Assembly: GCA_964637955.1 (NCBI GenBank) | Contig: CAZWXQ010000004.1 | Location: 81,296-145,295, forward strand | Origin: an uncultured Gammaproteobacteria bacterium | GTDB taxonomy: Bacteria > Patescibacteriota > Microgenomatia > Levybacterales > UBA12049 | DNA length: 64,000 nucleotides | Reading direction: 5' to 3' | Part shown: piece after piece, positions 3,805 through 28,803 of the stretch | Layout of the letters: the number at the start of each line of letters is the position of its first letter | How positions within the stretch are numbered: position 1 is the first letter of the stretch | Notes under the pieces: model-generated | The model's input: the letters and a program-made list of their open reading frames with translations, nothing else | The model's database searches: none | Told to the model about the DNA's origin: nothing | Position numbers and translations under genes: made by a program

Positions 3805-3821
3805 AATCTCATCTCCTCCGC
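3805..3821 (+). repeat. 17-bp direct repeat of the tRNA-Ser(GCU) 3' end (AATCTCATCTCCTCCGC), att-site-like remnant
   Basis: Identical to 3687-3703 inside the tRNA, 118 bp downstream. A 5' tRNA-like fragment (GGAGGAGTCTCCC) also sits upstream at about 3572-3584. Confidence 0.6.
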
Positions 3822-3958
3822 CAAAATTGAAAATGATATAATTCCTCTACGTTCTCATCGTTCTTGCTGAAATTCTGAAAGAATTTCAAGACGAAAATCC
3901 AATGAAAGGCTGAAATTGTAAGCAAAGCGAGCAATGAAGGCGCGAAATTGTGATTTGA

Positions 3959-4043
3959 GGAGGAGTCGCATAGTGGCCTAGTGCAGCGGTTTACTAAACC
4001 GCCAAATCGCAAGATTTCGCGAGTTCAAATCTCGCCTCCTCCG
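3959..4043 (+). tRNA. type-II Ser-like tRNA with non-canonical anticodon loop TTACTAA (apparent anticodon ACU)
   Basis: Acceptor GGAGGAG/CTCCTCC and D-arm identical to the Ser(GGA) copy. Perfect 5-bp anticodon stem GCGGT/ACCGC. Variable-arm hairpin AAATC-GCAA-GATTT. T-arm GCGAG-TTCAAAT-CTCGC. Discriminator G. Confidence 0.65.
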
Positions 4044-4066
4044 CAAATTGATATAGTTTATACCTA

Positions 4067-5119: not shown

Positions 5120-5256
5120 GCTCGAGTTTTGATATAATACTTCCACGTTCAACTGTACTTTCTCAAAATTCGAAGAATTTTGAAGAGGAGAAACCGATTC
5201 AAAAGTCAAAGTTTTAGCAAAGCGACAAACGAAGACACGGAATCGTGTTTTGACGA

Positions 5257-5343
5257 GGAGAGTTCGCATAGTGGCCTAGTGCGTTCGCTTGGAAAGCGGA
5301 TATATTCGTAAGGATATCGGGAGTTCGAATCTCCCACTCTCCG
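5257..5343 (+). tRNA. tRNA-Ser (anticodon GGA), type II
   Basis: Acceptor GGAGAGT/ACTCTCC, anticodon stem TTCGC/GCGGA with loop TTGGAAA, long variable arm, T-arm GGGAG-TTCGAAT-CTCCC. The roughly 130-bp leader is homologous to the leader of the tRNA at 3959. Confidence 0.85.
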
Positions 5344-5361
5344 CACTTGAGTAGGCCCAGC

Positions 5362-5790
5362 TTAAGCTGAAATTAACAGCTCTTTGGCTTCGCGCCAAAC
5401 CTTTTTATCTGAAGAATAAGTAAGTCTTTTTTCTACCTCCTCTGGAGAGATCCATTCCACATTTTCCATTTCGTGGTCATGAATAGTTATATCTCCTCCT
5501 GTATATTCCATAATAAAGTAATAAACAGTCTTTTTTACTTTCTGCCCTTCCCAAGCAAACCAAAAAGTAACCGGCGTTAAGGCCGATAGAATCTTAGCAT
5601 CTGCCCCTGTCTCTTCTTTCACCTCACGGACAGCAGTGGCTTCTTTAGATTCTTTTTTATTATCCTCTTTATCGCCAATCAAGCCCTTTGGGAAAACCCA
5701 ACCGTGATGTTGTGAATGTTGGCTTACGAGAATTTTAAGATCTGGATCTTTTTTAAAAACTACTCCCCCTGCAGAAAATTGAAAAACCAT
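5362..5790 (-). CDS. NUDIX hydrolase
   Basis: Nudix box Gx5Ex7REVKEETG (GDKEDNKKESKEATAVREVKEETGAD). Confidence 0.8.
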   Translation of the reverse strand: MVFQFSAGGVVFKKDPDLKILVSQHSQHHGWVFPKGLIGDKEDNKKESKEATAVREVKEETGADAKILSALTPVTFWFAWEGQKVKKTVYYFIMEYTGGDITIHDHEMENVEWISPEEVEKRLTYSSDKKVWREAKELLISA

Positions 5791-5802
5791 GGGGAAATTA
5801 TA

Positions 5803-5967
5803 TCACTTCGCGAGCTCTTGCAGTATTTGCCTCGCAGTTCTACCTGAAACAATTAAGCTTTCAACAGTCATGGCTTCTGCCTCAACTACAGCCTCTGGGA
5901 CCTGAGAGAAATCAACAACTAAATTTTCTACAGCTTGTGTTTGAAATTTTTTAATTTCCTGTTGCAT
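5803..5967 (-). CDS. small hypothetical protein (54 aa), not in ORF track
   Basis: ATG preceded by a strong SD (AGGAGG, 8-nt spacer) on the minus strand. MQQEIKKFQTQAVENLVVDF...QELAK*. Confidence 0.4.
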   Translation of the reverse strand: MQQEIKKFQTQAVENLVVDFSQVPEAVVEAEAMTVESLIVSGRTARQILQELAK

Positions 5968-6295
5968 AATATATCCTCCTACTTATACTTATCGCTTTTT
6001 CTATATCTTTTTCATCCATTGCCTGTCGAAAATTTTTTAATACAAAATCTTTTTTTGCTTCAAAATAGCTAGGTGCATGCTTCACATAAATCTTCCTTAT
6101 TATCCTATGCTTATTACTTAAATCAAACATTTTTCTAAACATATCTTCGTAGTTTTCAAAAGGAAAGCTTCCCATAAAGTCCTTTGCGATTACTTTTGCT
6201 TCATCAAAGCTTATTTTTTTACTTTTATTTAAGACTGCAAGATTTGCTACTAAATCAATTTCAACTTCATTTACGAAATCATCAAATTTTTTCAT
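5951..6295 (-). CDS. hypothetical protein
   Basis: 114-aa ORF with coding-like composition in an operon-like minus-strand series; no recognisable motif. Confidence 0.45.
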   Translation of the reverse strand: MKKFDDFVNEVEIDLVANLAVLNKSKKISFDEAKVIAKDFMGSFPFENYEDMFRKMFDLSNKHRIIRKIYVKHAPSYFEAKKDFVLKNFRQAMDEKDIEKAISISRRIYYATGN

Positions 6296-6316
6296 ACATT
6301 TTCCTTCCTGTTGCAG

Positions 6317-6541
6317 CTATGAACCTGCAACTTCTGCTATCTGCTCGCTTATTTCACGTCCATTATCAATCTGCTCTTGTTCATTTTGAGCTGCTAACTC
6401 CGCTGACATCAATTGCTGCCTTAAGTCTTCTACCTGAGCTTCCTCTTGTTCAACTGTCATTTCTAGCTCTCTTACAACTTGAGGTGCTTCTTCAACTTCT
6501 GCTTCTAATTCTTCTTTTTTAAATTGTTTATCTGGTCTCAT
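6317..6541 (-). CDS. hypothetical acidic coiled-coil protein
   Basis: 74-aa E/Q-rich ORF immediately upstream of 5951..6295 on the same strand. Confidence 0.4.
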   Translation of the reverse strand: MRPDKQFKKEELEAEVEEAPQVVRELEMTVEQEEAQVEDLRQQLMSAELAAQNEQEQIDNGREISEQIAEVAGS

Positions 6542-6624
6542 TTATTTCTCCTTTCTGAAAACATTTTAGGACTTGAGGATCAATTGAGCTTGACATCAAC
6601 CTTACAGGAAAATTACAAAAATGA

Positions 6625-7302
6625 TTATTTTTTCTTCAAAACAAGCAGATGATTATCATAATGTATGTATTTATTCGGGTTTGAATAAATCTCAAAAGGA
6701 AACTTTTTATCTTCAAATAAAATTTCCCATTTTTCTTTTGGAAAAACATCTTTAATATCTTTAATCCATCTTTTAACCGGCGTGAAAGAAGGCTGCCAAT
6801 CGTATGGACAACAAATTATTAAAATTCCATTTTTTTCTAAAACTCTAAAAATCTCATCGACGATTTTCTGCGGATTTGAAGACCTATCAAGTAAATTCAG
6901 AGAAATAATTCTATTAAATTCACTGCTTGAAAAAGGCAATTTTGAAGCATCGGCAACCCTAAAATCTAAGAAACTTCCTTTTTTATAATCATATTTCAAA
7001 AATTCACTTTTATTTTCTCTAATTTTTTTGCACTCAGCTATGCAATTTTTGCCCTGATCTACTCCCATTCCCCTTCTTATATCAAAACTTGCGCTGTCAA
7101 AAAGAACCCTACCGAGCCCGCAGCCTAAATCTAAAACTGTTGAATCAGAGTTCAAATATTTTTTGAGCAACTTTTTTATATTTAAGTAGAAAGGCTCTGA
7201 TAAATATACTTTCTCAATATTTTTTAGATAAGGGCCGAATTGAATTTCGTAGTAAAATTCAATAAGTTCATTTTGACTATAGTAGTTTGATTTGAAAAAC
7301 AT
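6625..7302 (-). CDS. class I SAM-dependent methyltransferase
   Basis: Motif I VLDLGCGLGRVLFD; acidic residue after beta2; overall MTase-fold spacing. Confidence 0.75.
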   Translation of the reverse strand: MFFKSNYYSQNELIEFYYEIQFGPYLKNIEKVYLSEPFYLNIKKLLKKYLNSDSTVLDLGCGLGRVLFDSASFDIRRGMGVDQGKNCIAECKKIRENKSEFLKYDYKKGSFLDFRVADASKLPFSSSEFNRIISLNLLDRSSNPQKIVDEIFRVLEKNGILIICCPYDWQPSFTPVKRWIKDIKDVFPKEKWEILFEDKKFPFEIYSNPNKYIHYDNHLLVLKKK

Positions 7303-7370
7303 GCTTAGATTGCGGATTGCATCTCGCTAAAACCTAACCCGCCTTCGCAAAGACCTCAGCGAGGCGAAAG

Positions 7371-7455
7371 CGGAGGGTACAGGATTTGAACCTGTGAAGG
7401 ACTTGCGCCCTCGGGTTTTCGAAACCCGTGCAATTGGCCACTATGCGAACCCTCC
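7371..7455 (-). tRNA. tRNA-Ser (anticodon CGA), type II
   Basis: Reverse complement reads GGAGGGT-TC-GCATAGTGGCCAATTGC...GGGTT-TTCGAAA-ACCCG, long variable arm, ACAGG-TTCAAAT-CCTGT-ACCCTCC-G. Confidence 0.8.
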
Positions 7456-7507
7456 CCATTTAGCTTATAACCCTTAGCAACTAACCGTTAGCTTTCTAAA
7501 GATTTTG

Positions 7508-7580
7508 CGCGTCTGAGAGGAATCGAACCTCCAACCTCAAGATCCGCAATCTTGTGCTCTATCCTTTGAGCTACAGACGC
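7508..7580 (-). tRNA. tRNA-Arg (anticodon GCG as read; most bacteria use ACG)
   Basis: Reverse complement reads GCGTCTG-TA-GCTC...GAGC-A-CAAGA-TTGCGGA-TCTTG-AGGTT-GGAGG-TTCGATT-CCTCT-CAGACGC-G. Canonical 73-nt cloverleaf. Confidence 0.75.
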
Positions 7581-7768
7581 ATTTTCCAGCTGACCCGCCT
7601 GCCAAACGCATTAGCATCAGCTTTGCGGGCAGGACTACGAGGGCATGTTATGAAACAAGTTTATATATTTTAAGGGATTTGAGGCAAGATCGCAAACTAT
7701 GAGTTCTTTTCCAAAGGAAATTTCCAAATTTATTGACAGCACCTAACTATTGTGCGAATATTTAGGAA

Positions 7769-8089
7769 ATGGATCTTGAATCTGTAGAAAAAGAGCTCCT
7801 GGAACTGATAGTAAAACACCTGAAGGATAATAAAATAACTGCTGTTGATGCACAGAATCAAGCAAAAGAGTTTTTAAATCTGCTTCCCGTTACCGACCAA
7901 GCAGATTTACTTAATAAATTAAAAGTGTTGGGCGATAAATATGAAGAGTCAAATGAAGTTTATTTGGATGAACTTCAAAAACACTCCGCAAATGAAAGAG
8001 ATAAAGCTCTTGACCAAATGCGAAGCCACATAAAATCAGGAAATATTGAGGAGGCGATAAATGCAGCTAAATCAATTCAAAAAAGTTGA
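7769..8089 (+). CDS. hypothetical protein
   Basis: 106-aa helical ORF preceded by TTGACA...GAATAT promoter-like elements (7733-7762). Confidence 0.5.
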   Translation: MDLESVEKELLELIVKHLKDNKITAVDAQNQAKEFLNLLPVTDQADLLNKLKVLGDKYEESNEVYLDELQKHSANERDKALDQMRSHIKSGNIEEAINAAKSIQKS

Positions 8090-8121
8090 CAGAGCCTGGA
8101 TATTTGTTATTAGATTAAATC

Positions 8122-9858
8122 ATGCAACCAACTCCTGAAGGAACACCAGCTCCACCAATTACACCTGAAGCGCAACCAGTAACTGCGCAAACTGCTCATC
8201 TCCCCGAAGCAAAAAAGCTGGGAACAGATGCTGCGAAGATGAGAGTTTCTGTTGATAGGAGAGTTGTAGATGCAGGAAACACGAGTGCAATTGATAAAAA
8301 AGCCGCAGAAGAACAAGTTTATGAAGAAATATTTAGAGAACAACAGACAGCAATAGAAGCTGCGCTCGAAGCAGACCCAGTCATGATTGATGCGCGAGCC
8401 AATGGCTGGTCACCTGAAGCAGAAAAAAATGCCTTATTAGACCCAGGAGATAGAGTTGGGGCAAAATCCTTGTCTGAGGCGGGAGCTCGTGTCAACGAAG
8501 CGCGACAACGACATGCTGTAGCAAAATGGGGCAAATTTGCCCAAGAAAATCCTCAAACAGCTCAAAAATATGCAGAACAGAACCCAGATGTTAGACATTT
8601 TATAGATACATACAAAGTACAGAAATTGGCAGAAGCCAGAATATTTGTGGATCGAGCATATCAACGATTAAAAAGCCTGGATCCTGAGTACATAGCGGCA
8701 CAACAACTTGGTGGAAAAATTGGAGCAGCTGAAGCTCAATTAAGACCTGCGCTAGAAGCTAAGGCTTTTGATGAATTAGTTGAAGCAGATCCAGATGCAA
8801 CAAGATTTCTTTTAGATTACGGCGATGAACCTGGCTTAGCAGAGATACCCAAAATAAAAGCAGCCTACGAGAGATATTTCGTTAGGCAAGAAACCAGAAA
8901 AGCAGAAATTGCAACCGAAACAGCTAGAATAGCGCAGGAAAAGGGTGCTGAAGAAGCTCTAAAAGCTTTAGCCTCTGACGAAGCAAAAAAGAAAAGAAGC
9001 GAGGCAGCAAAAAAAGGAGCAGCTACAAAAGCCGCGAATAAAGAAGCAGCCAAAAGAAGGGCTGAGCAAGAAGACCCTAGAAACATACCAATTGGTCCTG
9101 ATGGAAAACCTATGACATGGGACGAGGTAGATATAGCCTTGGGATTTAAACCTCCAAAACAAGAAAATTTACCAATTGGTCCTGATGGAAAACCTATTTC
9201 ATGGGACGAAGCAGCAAGAGTTTTGGGATACGGAGCTGGTGCAGACGGATCAAAACCTGGCATAGCTCCAGCTGAAGTACAGCCTGCTGCAGCGGCTAAA
9301 ACTCCAGAACCTCCTACAACTGTCCGCCCAGATGCAGGAAGAAGAATCGAACCTAAAATAATAAATGGTGTGGCATATCATCCAGACCATTTACCGGATG
9401 CGCACTCAAGGCCTGATGGAACAATTGAGTTTAGAGGTGGAGTAAAATTTATAGGTGAAGCTCCAACTCCCATAGACTCAAGAAGAGAAAAACCGCAAGC
9501 TCCCGCCAGTGAAAGATCTCTTCAGGTTGCAGTCACAATAGCAAATTTAGAGCGAAACTTACTAACAGCAAAAGACAGGAAACTTTCTAAGCCTCAAATA
9601 GAGGCACTTTCAAAAAAGCTCCAAGAAGCAAAATCAGCGTTTTTTGCCTTACAAAATGAAGTCGCCACTGAAGGAATTATCGCAAATGTTTCAAGTGAGC
9701 AAAATCTTGAAAAGCGAGCGACAACAGCTAAGAGTATCGTTGCAAATGAAAGAGATCCTAAAAAAAGACTTAATTTATTAAATGCATTTATCGCAGCTGG
9801 AGTTCTTATAGCAGGAACTACATTTGTAGGAGCAAGCGAAGCCAGAAGAGTCGCTTAA
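8122..9858 (+). CDS. Ala/Glu/Lys-rich coiled-coil protein with C-terminal TM anchor and internal tandem repeat
   Basis: 578 aa. Tandem 16-aa repeat LPIGPDGKP(M/I)(T/S)WDE at 9075-9215. C-terminal hydrophobic helix LLNAFIAAGVLIAGTTFVGA. Looks GC-richer than flanks by eye. Confidence 0.6.
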   Translation: MQPTPEGTPAPPITPEAQPVTAQTAHLPEAKKLGTDAAKMRVSVDRRVVDAGNTSAIDKKAAEEQVYEEIFREQQTAIEAALEADPVMIDARANGWSPEAEKNALLDPGDRVGAKSLSEAGARVNEARQRHAVAKWGKFAQENPQTAQKYAEQNPDVRHFIDTYKVQKLAEARIFVDRAYQRLKSLDPEYIAAQQLGGKIGAAEAQLRPALEAKAFDELVEADPDATRFLLDYGDEPGLAEIPKIKAAYERYFVRQETRKAEIATETARIAQEKGAEEALKALASDEAKKKRSEAAKKGAATKAANKEAAKRRAEQEDPRNIPIGPDGKPMTWDEVDIALGFKPPKQENLPIGPDGKPISWDEAARVLGYGAGADGSKPGIAPAEVQPAAAAKTPEPPTTVRPDAGRRIEPKIINGVAYHPDHLPDAHSRPDGTIEFRGGVKFIGEAPTPIDSRREKPQAPASERSLQVAVTIANLERNLLTAKDRKLSKPQIEALSKKLQEAKSAFFALQNEVATEGIIANVSSEQNLEKRATTAKSIVANERDPKKRLNLLNAFIAAGVLIAGTTFVGASEARRVA

Positions 9859-10418
9859 GATTTTTCCAAAGGGAAATTTTTATATAGCCAATCCCCAAGA
9901 TTCTCCTGGAAATTTGGCTTTACATATTCTCTGAAAGGCAAATATGGAAGTATTGCATGTTTTAACTGGTCTCTATGAAGCTCCCCGAGAGTCAGAATAA
10001 TTTCACCAGGCAAAAATGACTGGGTACGAATATGAAGTGTATCTTGTCCATCATATCTTCTGAAATAAAAGTCATAAAGCTCCTGCCAAAGATAAAAATG
10101 ATCTTCTATCGTTACTCCTTCTGTAGAAATCTTATATCTAAAAGTTTTTGGCTCAATTGAAGTAAGAGCAAATCCTGCAAAAACAAGAGAGACTATTAAG
10201 ACCATAAAGAGATATTGAGAAAATAAAAACAATATCACTTCAATAAGAAGCGTAATGAGAAGAGCAGTCGTATAAAACTGCTTACTTCTTTTTCGAAATG
10301 GTCTTCCTGGAGCATCCCAAGATAAAAGTGTTCTTACGTCGTGATATGCATGCTCAGTGTGATGAGAGCTTTCATGACTTCGCATTTCAGAGGATTTTTC
10401 GACAACTTCTTTCTCCAT
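9855..10418 (-). CDS. hypothetical membrane protein (2 TM + soluble domain, bacterial-PH-like)
   Basis: Two adjacent hydrophobic helices followed by a roughly 100-aa domain; His-rich N-terminus. Confidence 0.5.
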   Translation of the reverse strand: MEKEVVEKSSEMRSHESSHHTEHAYHDVRTLLSWDAPGRPFRKRSKQFYTTALLITLLIEVILFLFSQYLFMVLIVSLVFAGFALTSIEPKTFRYKISTEGVTIEDHFYLWQELYDFYFRRYDGQDTLHIRTQSFLPGEIILTLGELHRDQLKHAILPYLPFREYVKPNFQENLGDWLYKNFPLEKS

Positions 10419-10551
10419 AATTTAACTGTAACCGAAGATTAATTCTTCGTCAAGCAAAGTAATAGCGTTAGCATCATTTGTTTGATAAAATATACTCCTG
10501 ATAAAACAAGGAGAAGTTCTAAAAAAAACTCCCTATTTATCAAAATGTTGT

Positions 10552-10638
10552 GGAGAGGTCGCATAGTGGACTAGTGCGGCTGTCTTGAAAACAGCTGTGG
10601 GTGCAAGCCTACCGCGAGTTCGAATCTCGCCCTCTCCG
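10552..10638 (+). tRNA. tRNA-Ser (anticodon UGA), type II
   Basis: GGAGAGG-TC-GCATAGTGGACTAGTGC-G-GCTGT-CTTGAAA-ACAGC, long variable arm, GCGAG-TTCGAAT-CTCGC-CCTCTCC-G. Confidence 0.85.
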
Positions 10639-12285: not shown

Positions 12286-15200
12286 TTATACGTCTTCTGA
12301 TTTTAATCCTTCTCCTACTGTCTTTGTGGTAGCATTATATCCTTCAAAGAATATCCAGAGCATGAAGAAAAGAAGTCCTCTGTAAACCTGAAACCTTGTT
12401 CTGTCTTTAGTTCTGGTACGGGACAACTCCTTCATCTCTTCCCAAAGTTCCTCCCCATGGCTACCCACAAAATCTGTCTTGTGATGATCTAAAAACAGGA
12501 GCATGTCATCGTTATTAAACGCTGGGGCTTCAGGTCCGAAAATTTCTTGGAGCTCATTAACTGGCCCTTTATTTGGCTTTCTTTTCCAATCCATCATTTC
12601 ATACCAAGTCCTAGCTACGCCTTTATCTTTTTCTGTTAATGTTCCCATCAGCTTATAACTTCCAAAAGTATGACGGAATACTAAGGCTGCAACTCCCGGA
12701 TCTCTATATGCTTTAACTGTAGCTGCAGCTGCTAGGGCGGCTTTTAATTTTTCTTCTTCAGACTCGGCTGTTAAAAATGTTATATAGCTTTTATGAGTTT
12801 CGGCTGCAGCAGTCGCATCATTAAATGTTCTCTTATATGCGTCTCCCCCGCTTTCTGGCGAAAGCTTTTTAGATAGTGCAGTTAGTCCCATTTCTAAGTC
12901 TTCAAACTCCATCCTGTCCAATAGCCCATCATCGACTGTAAATGTACGTAAGTTTACTTGTGCAAATCTAGAATCCTTCATTAATTTCTTAATCGTATCT
13001 GGATTTCCCGCAAATTGTTGTAATTTACCAAATAAAGTCGCTATTTTCTGAGCCTGGTCTGGACCTTTTGAAGCAAGCATGTTATCAAGAAGCTTTGCAT
13101 ACTCAGGGCGAGACATTATTTGGGAAAAATCTATTTGCTCAGGAAGCCTATTATCTTTACCGCTATACCCTAGCTCTCTAATAAGCCTTAGTGAGGCTCC
13201 ATAATCTCTTTTAAAAACATCATATAAAGTCAAATGATTTGCCTCATCAGCAGCTGTTAATTTTATTCCAGCCTCTGTAAACGCTCTGTTTGCAGCTTCT
13301 ATCTCATGCTGATGATGATCTCCATGCTCCCTAAACATTCTTACAACATCCTCTGGTTTGTATCTAGCAATCTGCTTCCATACCTTAACTCTTTCTTCGT
13401 CTTTATACTTATCCTTATCTCCTTGACTCATTCCTTTCCACCCTGGCGTATTGTAATAAGTACCATTCTGAAGAACTCTAAGCCTCATAAATAATCCGAA
13501 TTCTTTTGCCCTATCCAGTGCTTGCTGCCTATCTGCTTCGCTCAATTGACTTATGTGGGTGAGATTTCTTTGCTTTGCTATGCGATATTGCATATTTTGG
13601 TCAATTTGCTTCATAAACTCATCAAGTTTCCATCCAGATGAATACCAGTCATTTACCTGCATAAGATCTTTCATAAGCTCAGATCCATAATCCTCAAGAG
13701 CAGCCCTAGTATAATCTGGCTTAGCATCACTTCCCTTAACATGCTCATCCTCATGCTGTTTAATATGTGGATCTATTTTTATTCTCTCTTGTGCCCAAGT
13801 CTCAAAATTAATTCCTTTTTTTCTCAATGTAGATTCTGCATATCTTCTTTTTATTGCATTAAAAAATAACTGTTGTTCATGATTTAACGTTCCAAATTTA
13901 TCAATAAGAAGCTCTTCCATATTAAACATCTGAAATAGTGCTGAAGGATCTGCTAAAATTCCCTGAAGGTTAACGCCATTATCAAGAGCATTTCCACGAG
14001 CTACTATTACAGCCTCTCTCTGAGATGCTACGAAATGGTCATAAGCCGTTCTAACTGCTCTTCGTATATTTTCTTTAGCAAGAGTATTCATTCTTGAATC
14101 ACTCATGACTCCCATGTCTATTGAGGCTGGGTTTAAACCTATTTCTGCATACAAATCTTGATTTCCTGAAGCCATTATTAGCTGCGCATATTCGTCTATT
14201 ACTCTTGACTGAATTTTTGAGTGCTCTACGGGGGTCATGTGCTGATTTGCTAAAGTTATTCTTGTATCATCATATATTTCATTTATCCTGTTATGCATCC
14301 TGTTAACTAAACCACCCTCAAAACTAAGAGTATTCATGATTCCATGAGTACCAAGCGTTCCTGCAATTCCCCCTATACCTTCAAGGTTCTTCTGCTGAAC
14401 AGCTGAGCGGGCAAACATGGTATAAAGTCTATTTGTAAATTCTTCAGCAAACCTGTTAAGCTCTTTTGGATTTCTACGTCCATATTCAGTATTTGTAAGC
14501 CAACTTAAAGCTCTTTCATGAAGCTGCTGCGCACCCTGAACCAGAGGAGAACTCTGCTCCATTCCCTCTGCTGAAAAGTTGTAAATTTTATTCATTTGGC
14601 CCTCAAGCCATTTCATTGGATCTTCTGAAAGTTCGTCAAAATCCTTAGTAGTAAGATAAAGCCTAAAAGTATCTCGACTATCAAAATCTGATTGCTTAAT
14701 CTGTTCACCTATTGCGTCTTCTAGTAACTTCAATTCCTGAGATAATTCAGTTGCCTGTCTTTGCTTATCTCCTGAAGAAGTATCTATTATTTTTTGAACC
14801 GCCTTATTATACTCACCTATTAATACGGGGTCGTGGATTAAATTGTTTTTTGCAAAAGCCAACTTAACAACCATATTTTTTACCTCAGGATCGGAGTATT
14901 TATCTGCATCAAAAATCTGTATTTGTTGCGCATCAGGAGCCTCTTGCTCTGGATTTCTAGGCCTTCCCCCAGCCTGCTGTCCCTGAGGCCTTTGCTGCTT
15001 TTGTTGTCTTGGATTAAAAATGCCCTTTAACCTATCTTCTGCTAAGCGCTTAATAGTAACATCGGGATTCTGAAGCAATTTCGTGAGCTCAGCGACTTCT
15101 GCAACCTGCTCGGGAGAAAGATCAGCCACATCTGATGAACCTGCCCTTGCTGCCTCTCGAGCACGTATTTGATCCGCGGCCTGTCTTAATTCAGCCGTAC

Positions 15201-15351: not shown

Positions 15352-15426
15352 AATGAGCGTAGTGTAAAGGAGTTAGCCCAAATAGGCTTGATATTAGAAT
15401 TACAAGCGCCTAACAATTGCCTTATA

Positions 15427-15500
15427 TTTACCATTTACCATTTATGATTTATGATTTATGATTTATGATTTATGATTTACTAAATACCATTTATGATTTA
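15427..15500. repeat. tandem heptamer array (TTTACCA x2, TTTATGA x5, then TTTACTA/TTTATGA variants)
   Basis: Read directly: ccatttaccatttatgatttatgatttatgatttatgatttatgatttactaaataccatttatgatttac, immediately upstream of a four-helix-bundle gene. Confidence 0.8.
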
Positions 15501-15548
15501 CTAAAAATTATTTACTATTTTACATTTACGATTTATCATTTAAATAAT

Positions 15549-15914
15549 GTGAATTCTCAAAAAGAAAAATTAGAATTACGACTGAAAAATTTTGGAATTG
15601 AGATCATTAAATTAGTTCGAGTATTACCCAAATCAGAAGAAAATAAAATTTTTGCAAATCAGATCATTAGATCCTCAACATCAATTGGTGCGAATTATGC
15701 TGAGGCAATCTATGGCCAAACAAAACAAGAATTTTTCCACTGTCTTAATATCTGCAGAAAAGAAACAAACGAAACACTTTACTGGCTGGAAATGATTTTA
15801 CTTACAAATCCAAGCTACAATAAGCAAATTGATATTTTAATTCTCGAGAACAAAGAATTACTTAGAATATTTATAAGCTCTGTTAAAACAATTAGCACAA
15901 AAAATGATAAATGA
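15549..15914 (+). CDS. four-helix-bundle protein (23S rRNA intervening-sequence protein family)
   Basis: KNFGIEIIKLVRVLPKSEE...IRSSTSIGANYAEA signature. Likely GTG start at 15549, in frame with the longer track ORF 15465.. whose N-terminus is repeat-encoded. Confidence 0.7.
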   Translation: MNSQKEKLELRLKNFGIEIIKLVRVLPKSEENKIFANQIIRSSTSIGANYAEAIYGQTKQEFFHCLNICRKETNETLYWLEMILLTNPSYNKQIDILILENKELLRIFISSVKTISTKNDK

Positions 15915-15938: not shown

Positions 15939-17276
15939 ATGAACGAAAACGAACTTGTGTTTGAGCGGTTTGAAGCTCTTTATCCTCCAGAAAGCTGGGA
16001 AAATGAAATTAAAAAGTTAGTTGGATTTATTTACTCAGGGAATTCAACTGAAATCATTGGATTTCCAGGTGTTGGAAGATCAAATTTACTTGGAGTACTT
16101 TCCTACAACAGAGCCTGCCGAGAACATAACCTTGGAGACAAACAAACTCAATTTCATTTTATACTCATGAATTTTACCGAAATGAGGAAAAAGAGCGAGC
16201 TTGAAGTCTTAAAATTCTTTTTTATCTCGATCGTTGATTCCTTAAAAGAGAGAAAAATGACCGAAGAAGCCCAGAGAGCCCAGGCGCTTCTTAAAGAAAG
16301 CTTTGAGATCCAGGATCAACAAGTTATCTTGCAAGGCTTAAAAAAGCTCGTTGATTATATTTCAATTGAAAAAAACTTAACCCTAGTATTCTTAATCGAC
16401 AGATTTGAAGAATATATTCCATATGTTACTCCGGAATTTTTCACTGATCTTAGGGCTCTTAGAAATAGAGCAAAATATAAATTTTCCGTAGTCTTCTCGG
16501 TGAATAGACCGTTTCAAGAATTACTAGATCCTGCTACTTATATTGATTTTAATGAATTCCTAGATGGTAATGAGATATATCTTCCCTTAAAAGACAATGC
16601 AAGTTTAAATTTTAGAATCGGCTTTCTGCAAATGAAAGCAAATGAAAATATTTCTCTGGAAAAAATAAACGAGGTATTAACCTTAACATCTGGACACGGA
16701 AAGCTAACCAGACTTTCTATCGAAGCTTTAATGGAAACAGAAGATGTTGACGACTTAAAATCACTTCTACTTAAAAGGCAAAAAATAATTTCTCTTTTTA
16801 ATGAAATCTTAAAAGGCCTAACTCCTTCAGAGCAAAATTATCTTAAAGATTTTGATCCTAAATATAAATCTGAATATCTTGAAAAAATTCATCTTATAAC
16901 TGAGGGTAAAATTTCAATTCCTCTTTTCGAAAGCTTCATAAATGAGCAAAAAAATAATCCTACAGAAGTAAAATCAGAAAAAATTACTTATAATCCTGAT
17001 ACTAACGAAATAAAAGATGGGGAAACTGTACTTTCTGATTCTCTAACATCTTCTGAATATAAATTATTAAAATTTCTAGTAGAAAACGAAGGAAAAATCC
17101 TAGAAAGAGATGAAATAATTAATGCTGTTTGGAAAGATCTATCCTCTACTGCAGGCGTGAGCGAACAAGCGCTTGACCAGCTAATCTTTAGGGTCAGGAA
17201 AAAAATTGAAGAAAATCCGAACACTCCAATCCATCTCCAAACCATAAAAGGGCGGGGATTTAAATTTACCACATAA
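15939..17276 (+). CDS. P-loop (AAA-like) NTPase fused to C-terminal OmpR/PhoB-type winged-helix DNA-binding domain (transcriptional regulator)
   Basis: Walker-A-like GFPGVGRSNLLGVL (Lys replaced by Arg). C-terminal trans_reg_C-like segment SSEYKLLKFLVENEGKILERDEIINAVW...LIFRVRKKIE...IHLQTIKGRGFKF. Confidence 0.65.
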   Translation: MNENELVFERFEALYPPESWENEIKKLVGFIYSGNSTEIIGFPGVGRSNLLGVLSYNRACREHNLGDKQTQFHFILMNFTEMRKKSELEVLKFFFISIVDSLKERKMTEEAQRAQALLKESFEIQDQQVILQGLKKLVDYISIEKNLTLVFLIDRFEEYIPYVTPEFFTDLRALRNRAKYKFSVVFSVNRPFQELLDPATYIDFNEFLDGNEIYLPLKDNASLNFRIGFLQMKANENISLEKINEVLTLTSGHGKLTRLSIEALMETEDVDDLKSLLLKRQKIISLFNEILKGLTPSEQNYLKDFDPKYKSEYLEKIHLITEGKISIPLFESFINEQKNNPTEVKSEKITYNPDTNEIKDGETVLSDSLTSSEYKLLKFLVENEGKILERDEIINAVWKDLSSTAGVSEQALDQLIFRVRKKIEENPNTPIHLQTIKGRGFKFTT

Positions 17277-17314
17277 ATCTAAGATGAATGATTTAAGATT
17301 AATGAATAAAGAGC

Positions 17315-17767
17315 ATGAAAGACGGAAAGATTGAGTCATTTACCGATTTAGTGGTATGGCAAGAGGGTCATAAGCTTGTTGTTGAAATCTACATGATTAC
17401 CAAAGACTTTCCAAACGAAGAAAAATATTCCACAACTGATCAGATGAGAAGAGCTTCTTCATCAGTCACAGCTAATATTGCAGAAGGATTTGGAAGACAA
17501 GGTATTAAAGAAAAAATCCAATTTTATTATCTTTCCAAAGACTCCCTTTCTGAATTAAAAAATTTTCTCTTCATTGCAAGGGATGTGGGATATTTATCAG
17601 AGGTCAAATTCAATTACTTATTGGAAAATTCAAACACAGTTGACAAACTTTTGCAGGGTCTTATTAGAAAAGTAAAACCTTCATCAATCCTTAATCTTAA
17701 ATCATCAATCTTCATAGAGGTTGCAATCTTTTCAACTCTATTCGGCTGTAGCTTTATGAAGAATTGA
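17315..17767 (+). CDS. four-helix-bundle protein (23S rRNA IVS protein family)
   Basis: DLVVWQEGHKLVVEIYMITKDFPNEEKYSTTDQMRRASSSVTANIAEGFGR signature. Confidence 0.75.
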   Translation: MKDGKIESFTDLVVWQEGHKLVVEIYMITKDFPNEEKYSTTDQMRRASSSVTANIAEGFGRQGIKEKIQFYYLSKDSLSELKNFLFIARDVGYLSEVKFNYLLENSNTVDKLLQGLIRKVKPSSILNLKSSIFIEVAIFSTLFGCSFMKN

Positions 17768-17998
17768 AGAAGCAAGCGTCTGATAAGGAATGCCCTCTTC
17801 TATTGCTTTTCTTTTTAACCTTGAGAGATCACGTTCTGTTAATCGAATATTTATGTTTCGTGTTTTATTAAGAGTATTACGAGCAATATCCATAGCTTCT
17901 TTTTTCTCTTTTTCTTGATTTTCTAAAGGAATCCACTCGCCTCTTTCGACTTCATCCAAAAGCTTTTGCTCCTCATCTGTTAGCTTAAAATATTTCAT
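17738..17998 (-). CDS. brnA: BrnA-type antitoxin (RHH/CopG-like)
   Basis: C-terminal NIRLTERDLSRLKRKAIEEGIPYQTLASSILHKA, typical of BrnA. 3 nt downstream of the brnT-like gene. Confidence 0.7.
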   Translation of the reverse strand: MKYFKLTDEEQKLLDEVERGEWIPLENQEKEKKEAMDIARNTLNKTRNINIRLTERDLSRLKRKAIEEGIPYQTLASSILHKATAE

Positions 17999-18001
17999 AT
18001 T

Positions 18002-18277
18002 TTAATTTTTGATTATATATTTTTTTGTCATTTTTCTACTTGGAAATATTGTTTTTAAAAATCGTTTTTCTTCGTCATCGACGAATGGCACTAAAAATAC
18101 GTATTTATTTATATTTACTATGTACATCTTTTGATTTGGATAACGTTTTTTATTTGGATGATCAATAGTTTCTAATAAATTTCCATCATCAATTGCCTGA
18201 ACAACATCCTCAAAACAAACCCCTCTGTCCTCTTTTAACCATTCATTTTTCTTCTTATCCCAATCAAAATATTTCAC
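18002..18277 (-). CDS. brnT: BrnT-family toxin (DUF497 ribonuclease)
   Basis: N-terminal KYFDWDKKKNEWLKEDRGVCFEDVVQAI matches the BrnT motif (FEWDxxKxxxNxxKHGIxFEEA). About 90 aa. Own promoter TTGACA-17-TAAAAT at about 18290-18320 (minus strand). Confidence 0.75.
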   Translation of the reverse strand: MKYFDWDKKKNEWLKEDRGVCFEDVVQAIDDGNLLETIDHPNKKRYPNQKMYIVNINKYVFLVPFVDDEEKRFLKTIFPSRKMTKKYIIKN

Positions 18278-18339
18278 AACTTTCTTAAAATTATTTTATG
18301 ACAAATGATATTATATGTCAATAAATATATGCTTACCAC

Positions 18340-18478
18340 AGACCATAAAAGGCCAGGGATTTAAATTTAGCTCGTAAATAAAGCAAAATTCAAAAGTCAA
18401 AATGCAAAATTGCAATTCAAAAAGTCCAAATTTTTTATTTTTTACTATATCTTTTGACTTTTAATTTTTGAGTTTTAA
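18340..18478. repeat. repeat copy 1: 3' end of regulator gene (CCATAAAAGGCCAGGGATTTAAATT) plus about 100-bp element with inverted arms CAAAAGTCAAAA...TTTTGACTTTT
   Basis: About 97% identical to 19117-19260. First 30 nt match the last codons of the 15939..17276 gene (...TIKGRGFKF). Confidence 0.7.
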
Positions 18479-18501
18479 GTTTAATTATAGCGCAAATTCT
18501 A

Positions 18502-18530
18502 TTGACACTTGTATATTTCTGTAATATACT
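18502..18530 (+). promoter_or_regulatory. sigma70 promoter TTGACA-17 nt-TATACT driving a leaderless brnT transcript
   Basis: -10 ends 4 nt before the TTG/GTG start codon (18534/18537). Predicted TSS coincides with the start codon. Confidence 0.5.
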
Positions 18531-18533
18531 TAT

Positions 18534-18848
18534 TTGGTGACAAGAATATTACCAAAGCCCATTTCCTTTGAATGGGATAAAGGGAATATTGAAAAGAACT
18601 GGAACAAGCATAACGTCACACAAAAAGAAGCTGAAGAAACATTTATCAATAAGCCATTTTTTGTGGTAAATGACAAAAAACATTCTTCTAAAGAGGAGCA
18701 GAGATTTCAAGCATTGGGTAAATCAAAAAGTAACAGAAAATTATTTTTAGTTTTTACAATAAGAGAAATTAGCATTAGGATAATTTCTGCAAGAGATATG
18801 AATAAAAAAGAAAGGAGCATGTATGAAAAAATTAAAACCAATACCTGA
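18534..18848 (+). CDS. brnT: BrnT-family toxin (DUF497)
   Basis: ISFEWDKGNIEKNWNKHNVTQKEAEETF motif; 104 aa; overlaps downstream antitoxin by 26 nt. Confidence 0.75.
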   Translation: MVTRILPKPISFEWDKGNIEKNWNKHNVTQKEAEETFINKPFFVVNDKKHSSKEEQRFQALGKSKSNRKLFLVFTIREISIRIISARDMNKKERSMYEKIKTNT

Positions 18849-19095
18849 ATTTAAAAATGAAAACGAAGAAAGAGATTTTTGGGCTACTGCTGACTCGACT
18901 GAATATATCGATTGGTCTATGGCTGAGGAGGTAATTTTCCCAAATTTAAAATTTTCAACAGAATCAATTTCCCTCAGGCTCCCTTCTTTTTTACTAGCCA
19001 GGATTAAAGAGCTCGCTAACAAACAAGACGTACCATATCAATCTTTAATGAAAATTTATCTAAGTGAAAGGGTAAATAAAGAATTAAATAGTTAA
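18823..19095 (+). CDS. brnA: BrnA-type antitoxin (RHH)
   Basis: C-terminal ISLRLPSFLLARIKELANKQDVPYQSLMKIYLSERV. Confidence 0.7.
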   Translation: MKKLKPIPEFKNENEERDFWATADSTEYIDWSMAEEVIFPNLKFSTESISLRLPSFLLARIKELANKQDVPYQSLMKIYLSERVNKELNS

Positions 19096-19116
19096 AACGC
19101 CTTAATATCCTACCTC

Positions 19117-19260
19117 ATCTCCAAACCATAAAAGGCCGGGGATTTAAATTCACCTCTTAAATAAATCAAAGTTCAAAAGTCAAAATGCAAAATTGCAATT
19201 CAAAAAGTCCAAATTTTTTATTTTTTACTTTATCTTTTGACTTTTAATTTTTGGATTTTA
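19117..19260. repeat. repeat copy 2: regulator-gene 3' remnant (encodes ...LPHLQTIKGRGFKFTS*) plus about 100-bp inverted-repeat element
   Basis: 35/36 nt identical to 17233-17268 of the regulator gene, followed by an element 97% identical to 18378-18475. Confidence 0.7.
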
Positions 19261-19408
19261 ACTTAAAATATTTGCAAAATATTTTCATTTATTCTACGCT
19301 AAATCCAGCACCTAATAATTACATTTGATGTTTGTAAATCTGACAGCTATTAGGCTTAGATTTAATTAAAAAGTTTGAATTTTCTTAAATAGGTGCTAGG
19401 ATAAAATC

Positions 19409-20590
19409 GTGAAGAGAAAATTAATTTATTTTATATTTAGTCTTTTTATATTAATCTCTCAATCATTAATCTTCGCTCCCGCCTTTTCCCCAAAAGCACA
19501 TGCTCTAAACGATTTATGGGACTGTAAAATTTCCTACATAGAGCCAAATCCCCTTACAGATAGCGATAAAAAAATTGACAAGATAACCATAAGCACAGGT
19601 GTTTCAACCCCAGGAAAATACAATGTTTATATAGATGATAAAGGAGGGGACGGCGATATTCATAGAATTAAATCACCCGTCAAATCAGGAGATCATCAAA
19701 TTACAATTGATACCCCATTTGATAAGGAAGGAAGAAGCGTAGATACTAACGACCCAACATTTAAACCTAACTCAACCCTTGATTTTTGGGTGACTCCAAA
19801 ATCAATGAACTCAGACATTTGGCCCGGCACACAGCTTAGCGAGATGGATAAAAGATCTTTTTGTAGAGTCAGTATAGATATTGGGGAAGGAATAGGGGGA
19901 AATGTAAACGAAAGCGAATGTAAAATTCTTGCATCTGGAGAAGGGGTTGGCAAGCCAGTACATCTTAATGTCACCTTTAAAGAAAACTCTGAATACTTAA
20001 ATAATAACTTTCTAATTATAGTTAAAAGCCTTACATCAGGCCAAGAAGTGGAAAGATACAGCCCATATAGCGCTAGCGATCTGCAGAATCCAGGAGTTGA
20101 ACTAAGTAAATTTGACGGGGTTAATCATGTACCCACTATTTTCGATGTTGATGGATATCAAGTAGATCTTCACACCAACGCCGGTCCTCCTTTATGCTCT
20201 TCAATTTTTACAGTAACAGAAACTGGAATTAACAATGCGAAAAGCGCATTCGATGCAGGACTTGGGTTTTTTGCCTGCTCCCCAGACGATCCACTAAATC
20301 CAAAAGAATACACTTGCCACACTGCTATTGGCGACGTTTCCACAGATCCTGAAGGGTTTATAAGAACAGTTTTGGCTTTAATTCTGGGACTAGCAGGCGG
20401 CATACTTCTGATAGTAATCATCTTAAACGGATACAAATTCATGGTTTCCCAAGGAGACCCTGAAAAAATTAAAGATGCCAGGGAAGGCATAGTAGCAGCC
20501 ATTATGGGAATCTTTCTTATCATATTTTCGCTTACTCTCCTAACCATAGTGACTTCAAATATTCTTGATATACCGGGATTTGGAAGCTAG
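19409..20590 (+). CDS. secreted protein with large N-terminal ectodomain fused to a C-terminal T4SS-pilin-like two-helix module
   Basis: Signal peptide MKRKLIYFIFSLFILISQSLIFAPA. C-terminal LILGLAGGILLIVIILNGYKFMVSQGDPEKIKDAREGIVAAIMGIFLIIFSL matches the module shared by the three downstream pilins. Confidence 0.6.
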   Translation: MKRKLIYFIFSLFILISQSLIFAPAFSPKAHALNDLWDCKISYIEPNPLTDSDKKIDKITISTGVSTPGKYNVYIDDKGGDGDIHRIKSPVKSGDHQITIDTPFDKEGRSVDTNDPTFKPNSTLDFWVTPKSMNSDIWPGTQLSEMDKRSFCRVSIDIGEGIGGNVNESECKILASGEGVGKPVHLNVTFKENSEYLNNNFLIIVKSLTSGQEVERYSPYSASDLQNPGVELSKFDGVNHVPTIFDVDGYQVDLHTNAGPPLCSSIFTVTETGINNAKSAFDAGLGFFACSPDDPLNPKEYTCHTAIGDVSTDPEGFIRTVLALILGLAGGILLIVIILNGYKFMVSQGDPEKIKDAREGIVAAIMGIFLIIFSLTLLTIVTSNILDIPGFGS

Positions 20591-20719
20591 AATAGCGACT
20601 AAATGGTAGCGTTTAGGGCTTAGTTAAGAGTAATAAGCAGATATAATCATTTTGGTTCAATTTTCAATTTGAAATTTAAAATTTGAAATAAAACCTGTTT
20701 GCCGACAGGCAAAATTTAA

Positions 20720-21074
20720 ATGATAAATGAAGTTAAATATGACCTAGAGGAAAGAACTACATTATTTTCTGAGGAAATTATTAATCTTTGTAAAAAAAAC
20801 TCCTAAAAATATTGTTACTATTCCCATCGTCAATCAGCTTATCAGATCTGGAACTTCAATTGGAGCAAACTATATGGAAGCGAATGGTGCCAGCAGCAAA
20901 AAAGATTTTAAGAATAAAATATTTATTTGTAAAAAAGAGTCCAAAGAAACAAAATACTGGATAAGGCTACTTGCAAATACCTCCAAAGAAGTCGAAAATG
21001 ACTGTAGACTACTTTGGAAAGAAGCTCAAGAATTGACTTTAATTTTCTCTAAAATTGCAGTAAACACGAAATAG
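20720..21074 (+). pseudogene. four-helix-bundle protein gene disrupted by a frameshift in an A8 tract (20792-20799)
   Basis: MINEVKYDLEERTTLFSEEIINLCKKNS* then +1 frame continues ...IVTIPIVNQLIRSGTSIGANYMEANGASSKKDFKNKIFICKKESKETKYWIRLL. Removing one A restores a full-length protein. Confidence 0.55.
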
Positions 21075-21145
21075 TTTTAAAATTAGTGAATTAACATTTG
21101 ACTGAAAATTAAAAATTTTAAATTTTAAATTCTGATTAACCTAAA

Positions 21146-21463
21146 ATGAAACTAATTTCTTATAAAATTCCAGGTGGCGAAGTGACCGGAGTAGAGGGCA
21201 TGCCAGATAAAGGCTGGGACAGCTTTCAAGGCCTTGTTACGTGGGGTATGACCGTTATCATGATCGGCGCTTCTCTACTTTGCCTTTTTCTTCTTATCAT
21301 GGGTGGGATTCAATGGATCACCTCAGGCGGAGACAAATCTGGGATTGAGGGTGCCAGAAAAAGAATAATTTATGCTCTAATCGGCCTCGTCATAATATTT
21401 TCGTCCTATTTTATAATTAATTTTGTGGGAGATTTTTTTAATTTAAATTTGCTAGGAATCTAA
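21146..21463 (+). CDS. T4SS pilin-like protein (CPR-type, two TM helices)
   Basis: TM1-IMGGIQWITSGGDKSGIEGARKRIIYALIGLVIIF-TM2 module, about 105 aa. Resembles the T4SS_pilin family described from Patescibacteria / VirB2-TrbC-like. Confidence 0.65.
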   Translation: MKLISYKIPGGEVTGVEGMPDKGWDSFQGLVTWGMTVIMIGASLLCLFLLIMGGIQWITSGGDKSGIEGARKRIIYALIGLVIIFSSYFIINFVGDFFNLNLLGI

Positions 21464-27419: not shown

Positions 27420-28766
27420 ATGGACAATCATCCAATTCCACAAGACATTACAGGATTTCAATTTAAATTAATCGGAAACATGACGGTAAAGCAATTTGTG
27501 TACTTGGCTATTGGCGCAGTTTTAGCCTGGCTTTTCTTTTTCATCATAGATTTCCCCACGATTATTAAATGGCCGCTATCTATTCTCGCAATTACTACTG
27601 GAGCCATTTTCGCATTTGTACCCATAGATGGAAGGCCAATGGATCTTATGCTTACCAATTTTATAAGAGCACTTATCTCACCTACGGAGTTTATCTATGA
27701 AAAAGAAGGAATGAAAATGGAAAACCAAAACATGCCACAGTCTCAGCCATTAAATCTCCCAAGAGTTCATATCGCAATGCCTCAACCAACCGCAAGCGTA
27801 TCTGGTTTTAATCAAGCCTCAATCAATCCAGCTCAATCTGCAATTCCCCAGCCTACCCCTCTTCCAACCCAGCCTCAACTCACAACTCCTGCGACTTCAT
27901 TTCAGCCACCAGTCACAACGCAGCCAATCCCAGCTCTTGCTCAAAGTCCAGCTCCTACTCCTGTTCTAAATATGCAACCTCAAGCACCTGCTCCAATTCC
28001 AATGCCAAGCCCTGCTCCCATTATTCCACATATGACTATTCAAGAAATCGATGAGCCAGAGGACTCAAAGAATCATCACAAAGAACTCAATAGTCTCAAG
28101 GAGGAAAACCAAAAACTTGAGGATGAGCTTGCAAAATTAAAGCTACAATTTGAAGAGGCTCTAAAAGCAAAAGATGAAGCTGCAAAGGTCGAACCACAAG
28201 CTCCTGCGCCTGCGCCTTTAATCATGCCTACTCCTGTTCCACAGCCCACGCCTGACCAAAAAGAGCTAGAAAAACAGCTTATTGAAGCAAACAGAGAAAG
28301 AGAAGCTCTTCAACGACAAATTCTGACACAACAAGCAAAGGCTCAAGCTCCAACTCAAGGAGTTGCTCCACAGGTCGCCACCCCGCCTCCTGTCCAAGCC
28401 ACGCAGCGAGTAAGAAGTATTCCTACCGGGATGGAGAAAGCTGCTGGAATACCAAGTATACCTGAAGCGCCAAACCTCATAACTGGAATTGTTAAAGACC
28501 CGAGAGGAAATCCATTGCAAAACATTTTAATTGAAGTAAAAGATCAGGACGCGAATCCCGTTAGAGCATTTAAAACAAACGGGCTTGGAAAATTTGCATC
28601 AGCCACTTCTCTTTCGAACGGAAAATACCTAATAACTTTTGAGGATGCAAAGGAAGTAAATAAATTTGACGCTGTAGAAATCGAACTCACAGGAGTCCCA
28701 GTCATGCCGCTTGAAATAATATCAGTTGATCCTAGAGAAGAACTGCGAAGGGAGCTTTTTAAATAA
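27420..28766 (+). CDS. PrgI-family (VirB3-like) T4SS membrane protein with long Pro/Gln-rich and coiled-coil C-terminal extension
   Basis: N-terminal QDITGFQFKLIGNMTVKQFVYLAIGAVLAWLFFFII...PIDGRPMDLMLTNFIRAL matches the PrgI/VirB3-like two-TM pattern. About 350 extra residues are rich in P/Q/A with a coiled-coil stretch (LKEENQKLEDELAKLKLQFEE). Confidence 0.55.
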   Translation: MDNHPIPQDITGFQFKLIGNMTVKQFVYLAIGAVLAWLFFFIIDFPTIIKWPLSILAITTGAIFAFVPIDGRPMDLMLTNFIRALISPTEFIYEKEGMKMENQNMPQSQPLNLPRVHIAMPQPTASVSGFNQASINPAQSAIPQPTPLPTQPQLTTPATSFQPPVTTQPIPALAQSPAPTPVLNMQPQAPAPIPMPSPAPIIPHMTIQEIDEPEDSKNHHKELNSLKEENQKLEDELAKLKLQFEEALKAKDEAAKVEPQAPAPAPLIMPTPVPQPTPDQKELEKQLIEANREREALQRQILTQQAKAQAPTQGVAPQVATPPPVQATQRVRSIPTGMEKAAGIPSIPEAPNLITGIVKDPRGNPLQNILIEVKDQDANPVRAFKTNGLGKFASATSLSNGKYLITFEDAKEVNKFDAVEIELTGVPVMPLEIISVDPREELRRELFK

Positions 28767-28803
28767 TTTTCAATTTGAAATTTTAAATTTAAAATCAAAA
28801 AAA

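Follow-up and report, generated by a model that had tools for sequence, protein, structure and literature searches.

How two toxin-antitoxin (TA) gene pairs came to separate a regulator gene from the pilin genes that usually come next is the question raised by a 64,000-nt stretch of an uncultured Levybacteria genome (Patescibacteria, or candidate phyla radiation, CPR), read from contig CAZWXQ010000004.1, positions 81,296 to 145,295, and hereafter called the window. Both pairs are of the BrnT/BrnA type and are bounded by direct repeats in which the 3′ end of the regulator gene runs into a hairpin. A first-pass annotation of the window had described two such pairs together with repeats of gene end plus hairpin, all of which are present by Pfam and repeat searches, and had proposed either an attI/attC-like cassette system or serial homologous-recombination scars. 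The array looks like the scar of recombination at one spot and not like a new gene-cassette system. We tentatively favor two lineage-specific insertion-duplication events, each by single crossover of a small DNA carrying a TA module and a junction copy from a close relative, a mechanism that we infer. What is new is the presence of minimal TA inserts between duplicated junction alleles in a CPR genome; the TA pairs themselves are of a known kind.

The final ~44 nt of the regulator gene occur in three direct copies, designated tails A, B, and C, that frame the array; A is the real gene end, and B and C are remnants (Table 1). A repeat search of the window revealed a three-copy family (17232-17278; 18333-18379, 77% identical; 19116-19162, 91%) and a two-copy 150-nt family (18339-18488 and 19122-19271, 91% identical). 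A 26-nt tail pattern matches three times and a 28-nt element pattern twice, with 0.00 matches of each expected in shuffles. In tails B and C the frame is preserved and the stop falls where the real gene ends; A reads ..KFTT before its stop, and C ends in ..TS, as in the three closest relatives. The homology of the remnants to the gene end is real and spans 42-45 nt, not the 30-36 nt initially reported. An identity of ~97% had also been given for the repeats; such near-identity is confined to the 82-nt hairpin core (81/82), and units B and C as a whole share 138 of 153 positions (90%), or about 93% over the roughly 140 bp first delimited.

The junction, running from the regulator stop codon to the promoter of the first pilin gene (pilin1), occurs three times in direct orientation in this strain. 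J1 comprises tail A, a hairpin element with a four-helix-bundle (4HB) gene, and a −35/spacer remnant; J2 comprises tail B and hairpin element E; and J3 comprises tail C, a second copy of E, and the intact pilin1 promoter. J1 and J2 enclose TA1, and J2 and J3 enclose TA2, giving the left-to-right order regulator, 4HB gene, minus-strand brnT1/brnA1, plus-strand brnT2/brnA2, pilin1. Each pair is followed by a repeat, as first described, in plus-strand coordinates, but for the minus-strand TA1 the first repeat (unit B) lies upstream of the TA1 promoter. The initial description also missed that the real end A has a hairpin of its own, different from E. This junction anatomy is solid.

Table 1. Features of the regulator-pilin1 interval, in window coordinates
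Feature	Position	Strand	Evidence and remarks
Regulator gene, 445 aa	15939..17276	+	C-terminal OmpR/PhoB-type winged helix; Pfam Trans_reg_C, E 4e-18
Tail A, functional regulator end, ..HLQTIKGRGFKFTT and stop	17233..17276	+	Repeat family, alignment
Hairpin element with 4HB (23S_rRNA_IVP) open reading frame (ORF) 17315..17767	17281..17712	+	Pfam PF05635, E 1.7e-35; heptamer-repeat inverted arms 17281-17312 and 17681-17712
Pilin1 promoter remnant, −35 TTGCAA (17721-17726) plus 17-nt spacer	17721..17743	+	Alignment with L084 and L014 promoters
TA1 module including own promoter, TTGACA-17-TAAAAT (18321..18293)	17738..18321	-	Promoter scan 11/12
brnA1	17738..17998	-	Pfam CopG_antitoxin, PF12441, marginal (28.0 bits vs cutoff 28)
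brnT1	18002..18277	-	Pfam BrnT_toxin, PF04365, marginal (34.6 bits vs cutoff 34.5)
Tail B, remnant, ..QTIKGQGFKFSS and stop	18334..18377	+	34/42 identical to A; repeat family, pattern match, alignment
Element E, copy B	18378..18488	+	Arms CAAAAGTCAAAA (18391-18402) and TTTTGACTTTT (18453-18463); palindrome AATTGCAATT (18408-18417)
TA2 module including own promoter, TTGACA-17-TATACT (18502..18530)	18502..19095	+	Promoter scan 11/12
brnT2	18534..18848	+	Pfam BrnT, PF04365, E 3.1e-23, 82 bits
brnA2	18823..19095	+	Pfam PF12441, E 1e-31
Tail C, remnant, HLQTIKGRGFKFTS and stop	19116..19160	+	38/42 identical to A; repeat family, pattern match, alignment
Element E, copy C	19161..19271	+	82-nt core 81/82 identical to copy B
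Intact pilin1 promoter, TTGCAA (19272-19277), 17-nt spacer, TACGCTAAA (19295-19303)	19272..19303	+	Same promoter abuts regulator stop in most relatives
Pilin1, first of four T4SS-pilin genes, right flank of inserted block	19409..20590	+	Pfam T4SS_pilin; synteny

Alignment reveals that J1 is collinear with the regulator-4HB-pilin1 region of two relatives (L084 and L014) over its whole length, into the −35 box and spacer, and its 4HB protein shares 57% amino acid identity with that of L084. The −10 box is missing because the TA1 block starts there, at about 17737-17744. The local alignment of this promoter remnant to the intact promoter (19272-19294) has a score that 90 of 2000 shuffles reach, and a −35 remnant sought at the right end of J2 was not significant. 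The J1 hairpin element is different in kind from the E copies of J2 and J3; the copies are thus different junction alleles, pointing to DNA exchange between relatives. The 4HB ORF of J1, 150 aa long vs ~127 aa in relatives, continues through the right inverted-repeat arm into brnA1, sharing 30 nt with the 3′ end of that gene. As it reads through the arm, its normal stop seems lost.

The regulator lies directly upstream of a type IV secretion system (T4SS)-pilin gene cluster, and in Levybacteria this synteny is kept in orthologs at 42-83% protein identity. The regulator orthologs identify the organism as a member of Candidatus Levybacteria. The 24 ortholog loci carry a large minus-strand gene, the regulator, and four pilin genes in order, and 13 of them have TTGCAA-17-TACGATAAA-ATTGTG within a few nt of the regulator stop. 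The site is empty in L083, L086, and 11 others. About eight loci (L003, L006, L012, L014, L015, L019, L022, and L084) hold a heptamer-repeat element between stop and −35, with or without a 4HB ORF and in either orientation, in the first 100-500 nt after the stop. By this comparison, the stop-to-−35 interval is an insertion hot spot that heptamer hairpin or 4HB elements have entered repeatedly. No TA pair stands at the regulator-pilin junction in any of the 24 loci, and the 27 other loci with a degenerate tail motif have one copy each and no second tail, multiple copies being found only in contigs of this strain. The block thus represents a lineage-specific insertion, and the junction that received it is conserved. 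These 27 single-copy loci, together with closest TA homologs that lack flanking repeats, also run counter to the site-specific target in this gene family suggested at first.

The tails themselves carry a phylogenetic signal. Tails A, B, and C and the tail of L083, the 83%-identical relative, share 34-38 of 42 positions vs a median of 29-31 for the other orthologs, which assigns the remnants to the same narrow species-level clade and not to an element-specific att sequence. Paralogous regulator genes were rejected as the tail source, as relatives have a single regulator at the locus. Cassette-free or alternative alleles of the same strain did not emerge either: exact-protein look-ups gave only the same arrangement, on contigs broken at the repeats.

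By domains and gene order, TA1 and TA2 are predicted to be ordinary BrnT/BrnA type II modules, sharing with characterized ones a BrnT_toxin domain, a CopG-type BrnA, toxin-first order, small overlapping or abutting genes, and a promoter of their own, and differing from them in nothing notable. The toxin gene comes first in each pair, the two genes overlapping by 26 nt in TA2 and lying 3 nt apart in TA1, and one sigma-70-type promoter serves each pair. TA1 is a divergent member, with Pfam scores at threshold; its homologs at 70-83% identity are called BrnT in Levybacteria, and NCBI gives the name BrnT family toxin to homologs of BrnT1 at 66-75%. The two toxins, BrnT1 and BrnT2, are not significantly similar (E 0.27), the only alignment between BrnA1 and BrnA2 covers 38 aa at 37% identity, and the modules point in opposite directions. 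Separate promoters and proteins that are not recognizably related are consistent with two separate TA acquisitions.

Tail duplication as a general trait of BrnTA cassettes was considered and rejected, given that the closest TA2 relatives (L219 and L221) and TA1 relatives (L229 and L230) lack flanking direct repeats; an apparent repeat in L230 corresponds to two complete tRNA-Ser genes. The closest TA2 relative (L219:5303-6547) has Gp49/HTH and BrnT/BrnA modules in tandem between two large paralogous DUF2341/Laminin_G_3 genes, with no flanking repeats found around these tandem modules. TA2 gives a 64-71% DNA match to annotated BrnT/BrnA on Leptospira plasmids. A plasmid or phage origin was set aside: BrnTA matches on the Leptospira plasmids are only distant, phages yielded none, and the repeats matched in neither.

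In the course of events that we favor, a small circular or looped-out DNA would carry a TA module and a junction copy from a closely related strain. On meeting the chromosomal junction, it would enter by a single Campbell-type, RecA-style crossover, once per TA module, and the crossover would duplicate the shared segment on both sides of the insert. The outcome would be a whole regulator ORF at the left and a whole pilin1 promoter at the right; because both are left complete, the insertion would be tolerated, and, once in place, the TA modules would be hard to lose. The 150-nt repeats of J2 and J3, 90% identical, could later recombine and release TA2 as a 783-bp circle with one junction copy.

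Insertion-duplication is favored because the junction alleles differ (4HB-type J1 vs E-type J2/J3), because the duplicated segments are long (150 nt; ~500 nt for J1), like captured chromosomal sequence and not an att site, and because no recombinase domain was found in the 20 mid-size ORFs checked within the window, in agreement with the original observation that the window holds no integrase. The serial homologous-recombination scars first proposed as one option fit the evidence, with gene-end remnants of the same clade in direct orientation and one self-promoted TA module between each. Two known processes are comparable, namely the single-crossover (Campbell-type) integration of circular DNA and, in transformable bacteria, homology-facilitated illegitimate recombination. 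As in Campbell insertion-duplication, the insert lies between direct copies of a shared segment, both neighbors are intact, and the copies differ as the alleles of relatives do. Unlike in that model, the donor circle is hypothetical here, and a common left boundary is not predicted unless the copies share ancestry.

Several observations weigh against this interpretation. Mismatches between B and C are distributed unevenly, with 7/42 in the tail vs 1/82 in the E core, requiring gene conversion or constraint on E as an extra assumption. The left ends of B and C coincide at about −43/−44 from the stop, which is the expectation for a site-specific enzyme; under homologous recombination, B and C would need a common origin. 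The closest TA1 and TA2 homologs (69-83% identity) reside in unrelated contexts with no flanking repeats, and no donor with a TA module plus a junction copy was found. Being a single instance, the array does not permit the mechanism to be read from comparison, and plasmids or free small circles are undocumented for this organism.

The main rival, which we consider unlikely, is a tandem of decayed integrative elements, an accretion of the kind known from cis-mobilizable elements (CIMEs); it would explain the coincident left ends and the restored gene end. An integrase encoded elsewhere or lost would recombine an attP mimicking the regulator 3′ end with attB, displacing the old gene end downstream each time, and later decay would spare only the TA stabilization modules. 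Direct repeats of a conserved gene's 3′ end with the intact end restored at the left form the classical attL/attR signature, B and C start at the same offset of about −44, the ..TS ending of C is as expected for a displaced original end, and genomic islands typically carry TA modules. Both tandem arrays with three att copies and accretion at the 3′ ends of conserved genes have been described (PMC5704250). The likeness to ICESt1/CIME-type accretion (PMC5704250) extends to three direct repeats with the target gene 3′ end, an intact end at the left and displaced ends at the right, and two integrase-less segments between repeats with TA modules as cargo.

The array also differs from CIME accretion. 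The putative elements measure only about 0.6 kb and hold a TA pair alone, no integrase turned up in the 20 window ORFs checked, and the site has no known one. The repeats do not stop at the gene end but take in a generic hairpin and the remains of a promoter, resembling captured junction alleles: the J2/J3 repeat includes the hairpin, and J1 comprises ~500 nt of native junction up to the promoter remnant, so that attP would itself have to be a captured chromosomal junction, which counts against accretion. The arrangement is a single occurrence, with no second case among the 27 tail-motif loci, and the insertions at this site in those loci are only hairpin or 4HB elements.

Rather unlikely, too, is an in situ rearrangement in which the junction was doubled by replication template switching or unequal exchange in the course of capturing foreign TA DNA, and one copy later had its mobile 4HB-type hairpin swapped. 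Here, the common left boundary of B and C would simply be inherited, and the junction is a demonstrated gain/loss hot spot for heptamer hairpin or 4HB elements (about 8/24 loci, both orientations). Long inverted repeats stall replication and provoke rearrangements, which likewise suits this scenario. Against it, several independent steps are needed, the tails diverge (81-90%) as much as they do from the species-level relative L083, and both the origin of the TA DNA and its capture route are left unexplained.

An artifact of assembly or graph ambiguity is quite improbable. The chromosome would then run from tail B through E to pilin1, with TA2, tail C, and E forming a 783-bp circle or a strain variant, or the array would be a strain-allele chimera. 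The E copies of B and C do share an exact ~58-nt stretch, longer than k=31, and Logan contigs break at the last copy-specific k-mer, L002 ending at 18418 and L225 starting at 19200; with breaks at the last copy-specific 31-mers, the k-mer graph fits the tandem form and a chromosome plus 783-bp circle alike. However, the order tail A, TA1, tail B, E, TA2, and tail C is found on one path in the deposited 183.5-kb contig as well as in one Logan contig (L001), and the exact identity of the tails is at most 20 nt, too short for chimeric joins at usual k. The same junctions occur in two samples, the Logan assemblies of two runs reproducing the array adjacencies.

Element E, ~110 nt long and AT-rich, consists of a run of AAnnCAA heptamers (also written nCAAAAn) followed by their complements, and the inverted arms and the palindrome first reported in it are in place (Table 1). 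BLAST of the repeats against all fetched loci revealed homologs at L012:7277-7385 and at the two flanks of a 4HB gene in L006. In L012, whose regulator is 47% identical in protein, tail plus E match over 148 nt at 77-78%; there, E sits natively between regulator stop codon and pilin1 −10 box, no cassette being present, and J3 is collinear with this locus. In L006, segments 13418-13456 and 13813-13862 match the E halves (86-90%) and enclose a 4HB ORF lying between two pilin genes.

A metagenome scan with a 21-nt left-arm consensus returned at least 120 loci, of which 112 non-redundant occurrences were examined. A 4HB (PF05635) ORF occupies the loop in seven, short ORF-less hairpins number 42-44, and 47 occurrences lie at most 45 nt from the stop codon of an ORF with 60 or more codons. 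In 44 of 108 copies, the left arm is followed within 170 nt by a right arm with 16 or more of 21 positions matching, vs 0.55 expected with shuffled arms. The expected tie of the element to cassette boundaries did not materialize, most of the 112 occurrences following ordinary genes or enclosing a 4HB ORF. The host contigs span 23-67% GC among the matches listed, and the occurrence of an identical 21-mer across this range suggests mobility across distant taxa. The 7-nt units of the family include TCAAAAG, TCAAAAT, and GCAAAAT, with a typical start just after a stop codon. By its sequence relatives, E is a member of a ubiquitous, dispersed heptamer-repeat inverted-repeat family and the ORF-less form of the shell around 4HB genes; this distribution makes it specific neither to cassettes nor to the regulator gene.

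E forms an 11-13 bp stem, with DNA fold energies (z −0.4 to −1.3) within the shuffle range, and as RNA, only one of the four strand/copy combinations reached z −2.0. The attC core boxes RYYYAAC and GTTRRRY are absent on both strands of both repeats, and an attC-like identity for the hairpin was rejected on motif, fold energy, and distribution. Rfam at gathering thresholds has no family for E, its matches in the window being tmRNA and tRNAs elsewhere only. Among viral contigs, the E core pattern has no match and an arms-only pattern recovers 12 unrelated hairpins.

These properties bear on two further explanations that assign the repeat an active role. One, very doubtful, is that the ~70-nt conserved junction, made up of the final 44 nt of the regulator gene and the pilin promoter next to it, serves as a dedicated site, at which a recombinase encoded elsewhere or a hairpin-acting activity would insert minimal self-promoted cassettes and duplicate the hairpin-bearing target, constituting a CPR-specific integron-like or long-target-duplication system before a T4SS-type pilin operon. 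The other takes the hairpin for an attC-type site that recombines in folded, single-stranded form, with the TA pairs as mobile cassettes. Small promoter-bearing TA cassettes occur in chromosomal integron arrays, and the locus resembles these in its small cassettes with their own promoters, in imperfect inverted repeats of the right size between them, and in the repeat that follows TA2. Yet this attI/attC-like reading can hardly be upheld against the missing core boxes, a fold no better than shuffles, the lack of attI and, among the 20 window ORFs checked, of IntI or any other integrase, a TA1 inverted relative to the repeat and opposite to TA2, a duplicated unit with 44 nt of coding sequence from the gene end outside the hairpin, array neighbors that are a regulator and pilin genes, the cassette-free E of L012, and a generic hairpin family that is ubiquitous and mostly unrelated to cassettes (44/108 plain hairpins after ordinary genes; 7/112 enclosing a 4HB gene).

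E can also be compared with the hairpins of 23S rRNA intervening sequences (IVSs) bearing PF05635 genes and with hairpins resembling repetitive extragenic palindromes (REPs) or miniature inverted-repeat transposable elements, sharing with them a long AT-rich inverted repeat. The two E halves stand on either side of a PF05635 ORF in L006, seven metagenome loci have the left arm running into PF05635 ORFs, and many ORF-less E-family copies lie just after stop codons. E elements differ in that they occupy intergenic regions of protein genes and not rRNA and are built of 7-nt repeats. A literature search on heptamer flanks of PF05635 genes found nothing relevant.

Tail duplication as a general trait of E-type hairpins was also considered and rejected by a left-flank test of about 118 loci, in which no upstream gene-end duplication was found next to such hairpins; L149 showed only REP-like intergenic repeats in a ribosomal-protein operon. 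The spacers of that CPR operon (L149:3020-3880 and 7950-8150) carry REP-like GC hairpins (GCCCCGTTTAACGGGGC, tandem 74-nt units) fused to E-family heptamer hairpins.

If insertion-duplication by crossover is correct, the array would be a natural example of tiny TA modules settling in streamlined CPR genomes, neither neighboring gene being damaged because entry duplicates a short conserved junction, and it would testify to DNA exchange among closely related Levybacteria. The broader by-product is a heptamer-repeat hairpin family tied to 4HB (23S rRNA IVS protein) genes, with the same intergenic spot repeatedly occupied in different genomes. This family is a more intriguing lead than the TA array and merits its own study.

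Further heptamer-repeat sequences lie close to the array. Just upstream of the regulator, 15412-15558 consists of at least 20 tandem 7-nt units (ATTTATG/ATTTACC) that enter the start of another 4HB ORF (15465..15914); this stretch probably belongs to a further heptamer-repeat 4HB element, of which it would be the left arm. A truncated 4HB (23S_rRNA_IVP) fragment lies between pilin1 and the next pilin gene (ORF 20874..21074; region 20656-21150), with AATTTNA-type heptamer repeats on both sides; its left repeat has a 35-nt copy, 91% identical, at 28765-28799.

The window as a whole is core chromosome, with dnaA, dnaN, ruvB, rpoD, and purA among its genes. The positions of dnaA and dnaN (35.8-38.5 kb) place the locus ~20 kb from the likely origin region. 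At the left of the window are a gene for tmRNA and six loosely clustered tRNA genes, several of them of long-arm types (299-710, 3613-10638). Just ahead of its start codon, pilin1 has in its 5′ leader (19303-19408; cf. L086:6180-6222) a conserved stem, CCAGCACC ... GGTGCT, closing a loop of ~80 nt in the window vs 8 nt in L086; going by these loop lengths, the leader suggests a possible hairpin with inserted sequence.

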